Assembly (NCBI RefSeq): GCF_055900595.2
Contig: NZ_CM148325.1
Length of the DNA stretch: 64,000 nucleotides
Direction: 5' to 3' (one strand)
Shown: positions 36,201-39,200 of the stretch, piece by piece
How the letters are laid out: each line of letters opens with the position of its first letter
Numbering within the stretch: position 1 is the stretch's first letter
Made by a program: the position numbers

Positions 36201-39200
36201 TGGTTATTACCGGCGTGCTCTTTTTTGCCTTCCGTAACGTGCAATATGCCCATGCAACGATGTTCATCACACTTTTGGTGCTACTTTGTTTTAACTTGCT
36301 GGGTGAAGGTTTTGAAGTGGCGTTACCTCGCGTAATCGATACGCTGATTGGTTGTGCCATTGCGTGGGCGGCGGTGAGCTACATCTGGCCTGACTGGAAG
36401 TTTCGCAATCTGCCGCGCATGCTCGAACGTGCCACCGAGGCCAACTGTCGCTATCTCGATGCCATACTGGAGCAATACCATCAGGGGCGTGATAACCGTC
36501 TGGCGTATCGTATTGCCCGCCGCGATGCACACAACCGTGATGCTGAACTGGCGTCGGTGGTATCAAATATGTCCAGCGAGCCGAACGTTACCCCGCAAAT
36601 TCGCGAGGCCGCGTTTCGGTTGCTGTGCCTTAACCATACGTTTACCAGCTATATCTCAGCCCTCGGTGCTCACCGGGAGCAGTTAACTAATCCTGAAATT
36701 CTGGCGTTTCTTGATGACGCAGTTTGCTATGTTGATGACGCGCTACATCATCAACCTGCTGATGAAGAACGCGTCAATCAGGCATTAGCTGACCTGAAAC
36801 AGCGGATGCAGCAACTTGAACCACGGGCAGACAGCAAAGAACCTCTGGTCGTACAACAAGTCGGGTTATTGATTGCATTACTGCCAGAGATTGGTCGTCT
36901 GCAACGCCAGATTACTCAAGTTCCGCAGGAAACTCCTGTTTCGGCGTAAGAGAGTCAGCCCATTCTGCAAGCTCCTGGCGGCGTGCCACCGGGAGCGCAG
37001 CTTCATGAATGCCGATAATGGCCCCTTCAAGCATAAACAGAATCTTTTCTGTCACCAGACTGTTTTGCTGCCGCAGTCGCAACCAACACATTTTTGCCCC
37101 AAGTATACGTAACGCCCGTACATCCTTAATCCCCACCTCCCCGAGTATCGCTTCCAGATGAAAAGACATATTGGGCAAATCTTTCAGTCTTTCCCGGGTA
37201 TTGCGCGTGCTTTTCTCTTTCAGCGCTGCATCGAGAGAATATTTCGACAGACGCACCAGCTTCAGTTGATTTCGCCATAGACTTTCATCAACCCGATAGT
37301 AATTGAGGGTAACGGATCGGCCACACTTTTTATATGTCAGCCAGACAGGCGGATGTTTTACACAGTACTGTGCACTTTGCTCACAAGCCCGAAGATACAA
37401 CTCACCATCAGAAACCATCGCAAACACCGTGTCGTCAACGGTCAGGCTGTAACTACCAAACAATGATCGGTATTCAATTGTGCCCAACGTTGCCAGGTAT
37501 TCTTGTGATTTATAGATCCGCTTATAGGAGAGGCTTTTCATAAAATTCCTTTTAAAATCATAACATAAAAGAATGATTCACATTAACGGATCCGTTAACT
37601 ACGAAAATAGGCAACTTATTCTTAAGGGGCAAGATTAATTTATGTTTTCCCGTCACTAACGACAAAATTTGCGAGGCTCTTTCCGAAAATAGGGTTGATC
37701 TTTGTCGTCACTGGATGTACTGTACATCCATACAGTAACTCACAGGGGCTGGATTGATTATGTACACTTCAGGCTATGCACATCGTTCTTCGTCGTTCTC
37801 ATCCGCAGCAAGTAAAATTGCGCGTGTCTCTACGGAAAACACTACAGCCGGGCTTATCAGTGAAGTTGTCTATCGCGAAGATCAGCCCATGATGACGCAA
37901 CTTCTACTGTTGCCATTGTTACAGCAACTCGGTCAGCAATCGCGCTGGCAACTCTGGTTAACACCGCAACAAAAACTGAGTCGGGAATGGGTTCAGGCAT
38001 CTGGGCTACCCTTAACGAAAGTGATGCAGATTAGCCAGCTCTCCCCTTGCCACACTGTGGAGTCAATGGTTCGCGCTTTACGCACGGGCAATTACAGTGT
38101 GGTGATCGGTTGGTTGGCAGATGATTTGACTGAAGAAGAGCATGCTGAACTTGTTGATGCGGCAAATGAAGGTAACGCTATGGGGTTTATTATGCGTCCG
38201 GTAAGCGCATCCTCTCACGCAACGAGACAACTTTCCGGGCTAAAAATTCACTCTAATTTGTATCATTAAGTAAATTTAGGATTAATCCTGGAACTTTTTT
38301 TGTCGCCCAGCCAATGCTTTCAGTCGTGACTAATTTTCCTTGCAGAGGCTTGTCTGAAGCGGTTTCCGCGGTTTTCTTCTGTAAATTGTCGCTGACAAAA
38401 AAGATTAAACGTACCTTATACAAGACTTTTTTTTCATATGCCTGACGGAGTTCACACTTGTAAGTTTTCAACTACGTTGTAGACTTTACATCGCCAGGGG
38501 TGCTCGGCATAAGCCGAAGATATCGGTAGAGTTAATATTGAGCAGATCCCCCGGTGAAGGATTTAACCGTGTTATCTCGTTGGAGATATTCATGGCGTAT
38601 TTTGGATGATAACGAGGCGCAAAAAATGAAAAAGACAGCTATCGCGATTGCAGTGGCACTGGCTGGTTTCGCTACCGTAGCGCAGGCCGCTCCGAAAGAT
38701 AACACCTGGTACACTGGTGCTAAACTGGGCTGGTCCCAGTACCATGACACTGGTTTCATCAACAACAATGGTCCGACCCACGAAAACCAACTGGGTGCAG
38801 GTGCTTTTGGTGGTTACCAGGTTAACCCGTATGTTGGCTTTGAAATGGGTTACGACTGGTTAGGTCGTATGCCGTACAAAGGCGACAACATCAATGGCGC
38901 ATATAAAGCTCAGGGCGTTCAACTGACCGCCAAACTGGGTTACCCAATCACTGACGATCTGGACATCTACACTCGTCTGGGTGGTATGGTATGGCGTGCA
39001 GACACCAAGGCTAACGTACCTGGTGGCGCATCCTTTAAAGACCACGATACCGGTGTTTCTCCGGTCTTCGCTGGCGGTGTTGAGTACGCGATCACTCCTG
39101 AAATCGCTACCCGTCTGGAATACCAGTGGACCAACAACATCGGTGACGCACACACCATCGGTACTCGTCCGGACAACGGCCTGCTGAGCCTGGGTGTTTC

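Follow-up and report, generated by a model that had tools for sequence, protein, structure and literature searches.

The ompA gene of a non-K-12 Escherichia coli chromosome encodes the known OmpA-long isoform in an N25 variant

The window that we analysed here is a stretch of 64,000 nucleotides from contig NZ_CM148325.1 (NCBI RefSeq assembly GCF_055900595.2), and it carries the gene for the outer membrane protein OmpA in the order sxy-sulA-ompA-matP-ycbZ, which is the orthologous chromosomal position (window ORFs against the K-12 annotation, strain 100117). The precursor has 350 amino acids and the mature protein 329, that is, 4 more than in K-12. Both expected domains are recognized by Pfam, OmpA_membrane (PF01389) over its full profile with E = 1.2e-79 and OmpA (PF00691) with E = 3.6e-24, and the same protein is annotated in a near-identical genome as 'porin OmpA' (WP_000750415.1). 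The periplasmic domain follows a Pro/Ala hinge, residues 205-350 match PDB entries 2mqe and 4erh, and its protein sequence is that of K-12, with zero amino acid differences past residue 186. At the other end of the gene, the DNA comparison with MG1655 gave zero differences over 38500-38749, which includes a portion of the 5' leader. The 21-residue length of the OmpA signal peptide is that given by Liao 2022. A scan for consensus promoters and terminators returned no sigma-70-like site, and it also missed the ompA terminator hairpin, which lacks the loop of 3 nt or more that the scan requires. The coordinates of all these features, and of the polymorphic sites that we discuss below, are collected in Table 1.

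Table 1. Features of the ompA locus in the window (positions are those of the 64,000-nucleotide stretch; residues are numbered on the mature protein unless stated otherwise)
Feature	Coordinates	Strand	Remarks
ompA 5' untranslated leader	38493..38625	+	133 nt in K-12; start point presumably as in the K-12 mRNA
ompA CDS	38626..39678	+	ATG at 38626; 350 codons + TAA; ORF and translation
Signal peptide, 21 codons	38626..38688	+	K-12-identical
Eight-stranded beta-barrel domain, residues 1-175	38689..39213	+	AlphaFold model, Foldseek
Loop 1 polymorphic codon N25 (AAC)	38761..38763	+	same as K-12; five-allele DNA alignment
Loop 2 tip D66-N67-I68	38884..38892	+	K-12 = S-V-E; 8 of 9 bases differ
Loop 3 segment A108-D118, 11 residues	39010..39042	+	tip of the beta5-beta6 hairpin; K-12 = SNVYGKN
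12-nt in-frame insertion relative to K-12, G-A-S-F as aligned	39024..39035	+	MAFFT, five-allele DNA alignment; exact site inside loop 3 varies with the alignment
Loop 4 polymorphic codon H155 (CAC)	39151..39153	+	N in Liao pattern II and in S. flexneri
L165 (CTG), strand beta8	39181..39183	+	K-12 = M161 (ATG)
C-terminal periplasmic OmpA-family (peptidoglycan-binding) domain	39301..39588	+	PF00691, residues 226-321
Likely intrinsic terminator	39699..39721	+	CCCCGCAG/CTGCGGGG palindrome followed by seven T; read from the sequence

The first-pass annotation of this DNA had singled out the loop 3 segment as departing from the K-12 loop in both length and composition. This is indeed what the alignment with MG1655 gives. 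The segment reads, in frame, gct aac gta cct ggt ggc gca tcc ttt aaa gac, which corresponds to precursor codons 129-139 and to mature residues 108-118, and it differs from K-12 by S108A, Y111P, a four-residue insertion and N114D (K-12 numbering), hence by four extra residues and three substitutions. The K-12 loop SNVYGKN is the one that had been quoted for comparison, and the flanks RADTK and HDTGVSP given for the segment match the translation. The identical four-residue gap appears in the K-12-type chains 3nb3 and 9fzc when PDB sequences are aligned. A sequencing artefact is ruled out: the insertion is in frame and the 47 nt at 39001-39047 are identical in 1,684 complete genomes, so the difference is due neither to error nor to chance. 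For the same segment, we also checked whether the 12-nt insertion could be private to one genome, which is not the case, as other genomes carry it.

The divergence of the protein from K-12 is concentrated in a small part of the molecule. Overall, 339 of the 346 aligned OmpA residues are those of MG1655, and six of the seven replaced codons, together with the insertion, lie in loops 2 and 3, which make up 27 codons, while the other 323 codons contain a single replacement (Fisher p = 3e-7). The same clustering is directly visible in the DNA, where 43 differences from K-12 are found in the 500 nt of the barrel-coding region (38750-39249) as against about 5 per 250 nt of flanking DNA. Two of these sites, the replacement of SVE by DNI in loop 2 and that of M by L in the last strand, had been overlooked by the earlier reading.

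In order to place the segment on the protein, the barrel was modelled with AlphaFold. A full-length model built from 10 close relatives reached a pLDDT of only 30.8 and was discarded; the alignment used instead was derived from 1,382 barrel-domain representatives at E <= 0.001, from which 102 distant homologues were aligned with the query (103 sequences). The resulting barrel model has a pLDDT of 96.4 and eight strands (6-19, 33-44, 49-64, 69-86, 91-109, 115-134, 139-148 and 162-173). At one end of the barrel, the strands are joined by the turns 20-32, 65-68 (GDNI), 110-114 (VPGGA) and 149-161, and at the opposite end by short ones (VNPY, ITDD and ITPE). It follows from these positions that the flagged segment lies across the tip of the beta5-beta6 hairpin and that DNI forms the tip of the beta3-beta4 hairpin. 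The four longer connections are the extracellular loops, according to the published OmpA topology and to the loop numbering of Liao 2017, in which positions 108-114 are designated loop 3.

The best Foldseek match of this model is PDB 9FZD, 'Structure of OmpA-long in complex with nanobody Nb39', with TM scores of 0.94/0.96, an rmsd of 1.1 A and 98% identity to chain A; it is followed by 9FZC, 'OmpA-short', and then by 1BXW (TM 0.82). The earlier proposal that the segment is a surface loop, to be verified by mapping it onto the barrel, is thus borne out, by the modelled turn at 110-114 as well as by the superposition on 9FZD: the segment falls in extracellular loop 3. The possibilities that it belongs to a transmembrane strand or faces the periplasm were considered, and the structural placement excludes both. 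Among the 102 distant homologues, residues 108-118 form the least conserved columns of the barrel, and this segment can be 6 to 25 residues long, in contrast to the strand segments, which are almost constant in length.

The allele found here is the known 'OmpA-long' isoform, also termed ompA2, and it has the loop-3 type of patterns II and III in the outer-loop scheme of Liao et al. (PMC5413513, PMC9560509). It has an 11-residue loop 3 in place of the 7-residue SNVYGKN, and DNI in loop 2. The comparison with known allele classes that had been suggested as a check therefore ends in a definite assignment, to the OmpA-long/ompA2 type, and the loop is not identical to that of K-12. The distinction between OmpA-short and OmpA-long was drawn in about 90,000 genomes, and the structures of both were solved (9FZC and 9FZD; PMC12259851, Commun Biol 2025). 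The OmpA-long structure 9FZD, equivalent to the ompA2 of Power et al. 2006, has loops 2 and 3 identical to ours, and 173 of the 175 aligned barrel residues are the same; the reference differs by P25 in loop 1 and by M where our allele has L165. K-12 OmpA (pattern I-alpha, 'OmpA-short', PDB 1BXW, 1QJP and 9FZC) has the same gene, position, leader, signal peptide, loops 1 and 4, barrel strands and periplasmic domain, but it carries SVE in loop 2, the loop 3 that is four residues shorter, and M161, where we find DNI, the long loop 3 and L.

In the Liao 2017 scheme, this allele is typed as I93, L at their position 161, and C-terminal pattern alpha (A, N, G). It shares loops 2 and 3 and the alpha C-terminal pattern with patterns II and III, and its loop 4 residue is H155, as in pattern III, whereas loop 1 has N25 and not the proline of these two patterns. 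Because of N25, the allele is filed under an unnamed minor pattern of Table 3A rather than under II or III. This exact loop pattern was found in 2 of 78 isolates in Liao 2017, in which patterns II and III, with P in loop 1, represent 20.5% and 14.1%. The exact combination of N25, DNI, long loop 3, H155 and L165 is thus a minor, already catalogued published pattern. The long loop 3 was also described in O78 and CFT073 by Gophna 2004, as far as it is cited in Liao 2017.

How common the long loop is was assessed in 5,426 complete E. coli genomes. The 47 nt at 39001-39047 are found exactly in 1,684 of them (31%) and with one mismatch in 374 more (7%), which brings the total to 38%; this figure covers the present loop 3 type only, since the rarer loops of the SNVPGGASTKD type offer no seed to megablast. 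A longer query of 63 nt retrieved 2,062 genomes, and the 47-nt K-12 form (DTKSNVYGKNHDTGV) is present in 2,961 genomes (55%). The proportion of 43% of 524 isolates obtained by PCR for ompA2 (Power 2006, in the form cited by Liao 2017) is near the 38% that we counted. The whole-gene sequence is far rarer than its loop 3: only 14 complete genomes carry it at >=99% identity, 8 of them at 100%, and the next-best alleles, 98.5-98.7% identical, encode D25 or SNVPGGASTKD variants. The exact protein is found on at least 1,000 contigs, under the name 'MULTISPECIES: porin OmpA [Escherichia]' (UniProt A0A0L7AK12; RefSeq WP_000750415.1). Since the variant occurs in about 38% of the complete genomes and its crystal structure is solved, the initial observation is correct but ordinary. 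Published work already covers the dimorphism, including how frequent it is and its structural basis, as well as several of the functional consequences.

The strain itself is not K-12, as the 8 kb around ompA are only 97.7% identical to MG1655, and on this point the first-pass annotation was right. The loop type itself is a poor marker of lineage, however, because long-loop alleles span phylogroups A, B1 and B2; the K-12 pattern is likewise found outside phylogroup A. The best explanation, which we regard as almost certain, is that the window carries the chromosomal ompA of a non-K-12 E. coli that encodes the known OmpA-long isoform, with an altered surface epitope, as one arm of an old dimorphism. 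This dimorphism is species-wide, with about 55% of the complete genomes having the short form and about 38% the long one, and with motifs common to Salmonella. Indeed, Salmonella OmpAs from the same 90% cluster combine DNI with a long loop of the SN.PGG.S.KD type, so the long form is not an E. coli novelty, and it may be the older state of the two.

Such a sharing of loop motifs with Salmonella and Shigella could also be read as the trace of a recent horizontal import, for instance from one of these genera, instead of an inherited standing polymorphism, and relative to K-12 the barrel region shows about four times the divergence of its flanks. This scenario is extremely improbable, however. 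The gene occupies its usual site between sulA and matP, without any mobile element, and eight complete genomes, some of them of stool isolates from Gambia and Mali, have an identical gene within 24 kb of surroundings (27000-51000) that are 100% identical. Moreover, the DNA of the loop is the same in 31% of the complete genomes, in many lineages, and the 3' half of the gene is as far from K-12 (14 substitutions) as from a B2 long-loop allele (14 as well). The identity of the loop DNA across lineages and the normal position of the gene imply that any exchange was old and species-wide, and not specific to this strain. A more local event can also be envisaged, in which a K-12-type 5' end with N25 was recombined onto a long-type remainder. 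Positions 1-146 of the gene are those of K-12, whereas long-loop alleles with P25 differ at 5 clustered sites (132-138), and positions 147 to 415 follow the long type in the five-allele alignment. In Liao 2017, DNI in loop 2 co-occurs with the long loop 3. The negative correlation of N with DNI in the same study (rho -0.75) also goes in the direction of a mosaic. But the informative 5' sites, five in all, are packed into 7 nt around codon 25, which makes them one micro-polymorphism rather than a tract, and they are too few for a breakpoint to be placed. The common long-loop alleles carry either P25 (CCT) or D25 (GAC), and those with D25, whose codon is a single step away from AAC, have the same bases around it, so N25 and the long loop may be the original combination. 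We thus consider a mosaic origin unlikely, and the inherited long-form allele is the reading that we retain.

As for the consequences of this inherited allele at the cell surface, the mechanism that we propose is the following. The surface-projecting beta5-beta6 hairpin is four residues longer than in K-12 and carries a Pro-Gly-Gly turn, with DNI replacing SVE at the loop 2 tip, while the membrane-embedded barrel, the hinge, the periplasmic domain and the 5' leader are left unchanged, so that the change concerns the surface epitope. As a large share of the exposed OmpA epitope is made up of the tips of loops 2 and 3, this allele would be expected to change the binding of phage receptor-binding proteins, OmpA-dependent bacteriocins, antibodies and nanobodies. 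The idea that it may alter the sensitivity to phages and colicins was already put forward in the earlier reading, and it finds backing in published allele-class experiments (Sf6, Gp38 and resistance mutations), made with alleles other than this exact one. The ompA mutations that confer resistance to phages or colicins map mostly to loops 2 and 3. From such experiments on the same loop residues, we infer that the receptor specificity could well be changed. Loop 4 is involved in another interaction, since the TraN-gamma of F plasmids pairs with E. coli OmpA and the G154D change in this loop blocks conjugation.

It can be argued, on the contrary, that the loop difference is functionally neutral and that exposed loops, being unconstrained, simply drift without any effect on phage or colicin sensitivity. 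The low conservation and variable length of loop 3 among the 102 homologues would fit with this. The affinity of Sf6 for K-12-type and S. flexneri OmpA is similar (25 vs 36 nM), but infection is ten-fold lower through the K-12 type. In the Sf6 work, the substitutions D66A, N67E, P111E and N155E were picked to cover a range of infection phenotypes, and D66, N67 and P111 are among the residues whose substitution reportedly alters the efficiency of infection; the S. flexneri OmpA, the secondary Sf6 receptor, shares D66, N67 and P111 with our allele and differs from it by N155, where we find H155, and the Shigella-type sequences seen have P25 and not N25. In the Gp38 study, a set of eight natural OmpA variants was produced in MG1655 delta-ompA, and the broad-host-range phages FL08 and AV119, which use this tail-fibre adhesin, infect through all eight, whereas narrow-host-range ones are restricted, in this isogenic background, to three of the eight (variants 1, 3 and 4). 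These three variants carry E89, that is, the SVE type of loop 2, from which we infer that narrow-host-range Gp38 phages would not use the DNI/long allele. Patterns I and II show no significant difference in the attachment to corn stover (Liao 2017). The nanobodies Nb01 and Nb39 separate the short and long forms absolutely, through contacts that include loop 3 (PMC12259851). Finally, only two forms prevail across the species (55% and 38%) and each is highly conserved, where drift would give a continuum. Neutrality of the loop difference is thus very unlikely.

Diversifying or frequency-dependent selection at the surface has probably kept both forms of this dimorphism, with recombination shuffling the loops, as the coexistence of two conserved forms would suggest; a relaxed constraint on the exposed loops would concentrate changes there too. 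One may go further and suppose that the combination of N25 with the long loops 2 and 3, H155 and L165 makes a receptor that arose by recombination and whose hybrid specificity is absent from both major isoforms. This is quite improbable in our opinion, but if it were true, such a receptor might keep the sensitivity to phages that dock on a K-12-type loop 1 and escape those that need the SVE and SNVYGKN tips, it might escape the nanobody Nb39, and the N25 long allele would be an instance from nature of phage escape through the shuffling of loops. Beyond its correct annotation, the allele has little significance and raises no new biological question. The OmpA isoform nonetheless predicts which OmpA-dependent phages, bacteriocins, nanobodies and vaccine antibodies can bind a strain, and it is for this reason that recording 'OmpA-long, N25 variant' would be useful for the choice of therapeutic phages or for diagnostics.

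Between 15000 and 63000 (48 kb), the window differs from its nearest relatives among the complete genomes at only 11 positions, and about 176 differences from the same relatives are packed into the roughly 9 kb at ~2500-11500, where their density is greatest at 8000-8999 (55 per kb). Over window positions 1-14500, every complete genome stays below 99% identity. In this pattern, the stretch at ~2500-11500 has the look of a patch that one of the lineages acquired by recombination.

The kinase gene etk is intact in the window, whereas the annotations of strains 100117 and E200086, both otherwise near-identical to the window, list it as a pseudogene interrupted by an internal stop. 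The four Rfam matches in the table score above the gathering score, and all are expected in this part of the chromosome.

Selected features of the window
Feature	Position	Strand	Remark
torT/torS, yccM, gnsA, cspG/cspH, gfcA-C	~2500-11500		divergent stretch
cspA-type thermoregulator leader	7724..8146	-	Rfam; adjoins cspG
etk, tyrosine kinase of group 4 capsule operon	14464..16644	+	intact 726-codon ORF
tRNA	26967..27051	+	Rfam; tRNA-Ser by annotation of near-identical genome
OmpA loop 2 tip, SVE (K-12) to DNI	38884..38892		8 of 9 bases changed
OmpA M161L relative to K-12	39181..39183		strand beta8
PyrD leader	53772..53845	-	Rfam
naRNA4 (nucleoid-associated RNA, REP-derived)	58296..58374	-	Rfam

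Of the sites at which OmpA departs from K-12, the first-pass annotation had flagged loop 3 only; two more such sites, in loop 2 and in strand beta8, are found in the gene. When the whole gene was searched against the collection of 5,426 complete E. coli genomes, a single genome lacked an ompA match. Plasmid-labelled records of this collection hold a few ompA matches: the whole gene matches them at 5 places, the queries with the two forms of loop 3 at 2-3.
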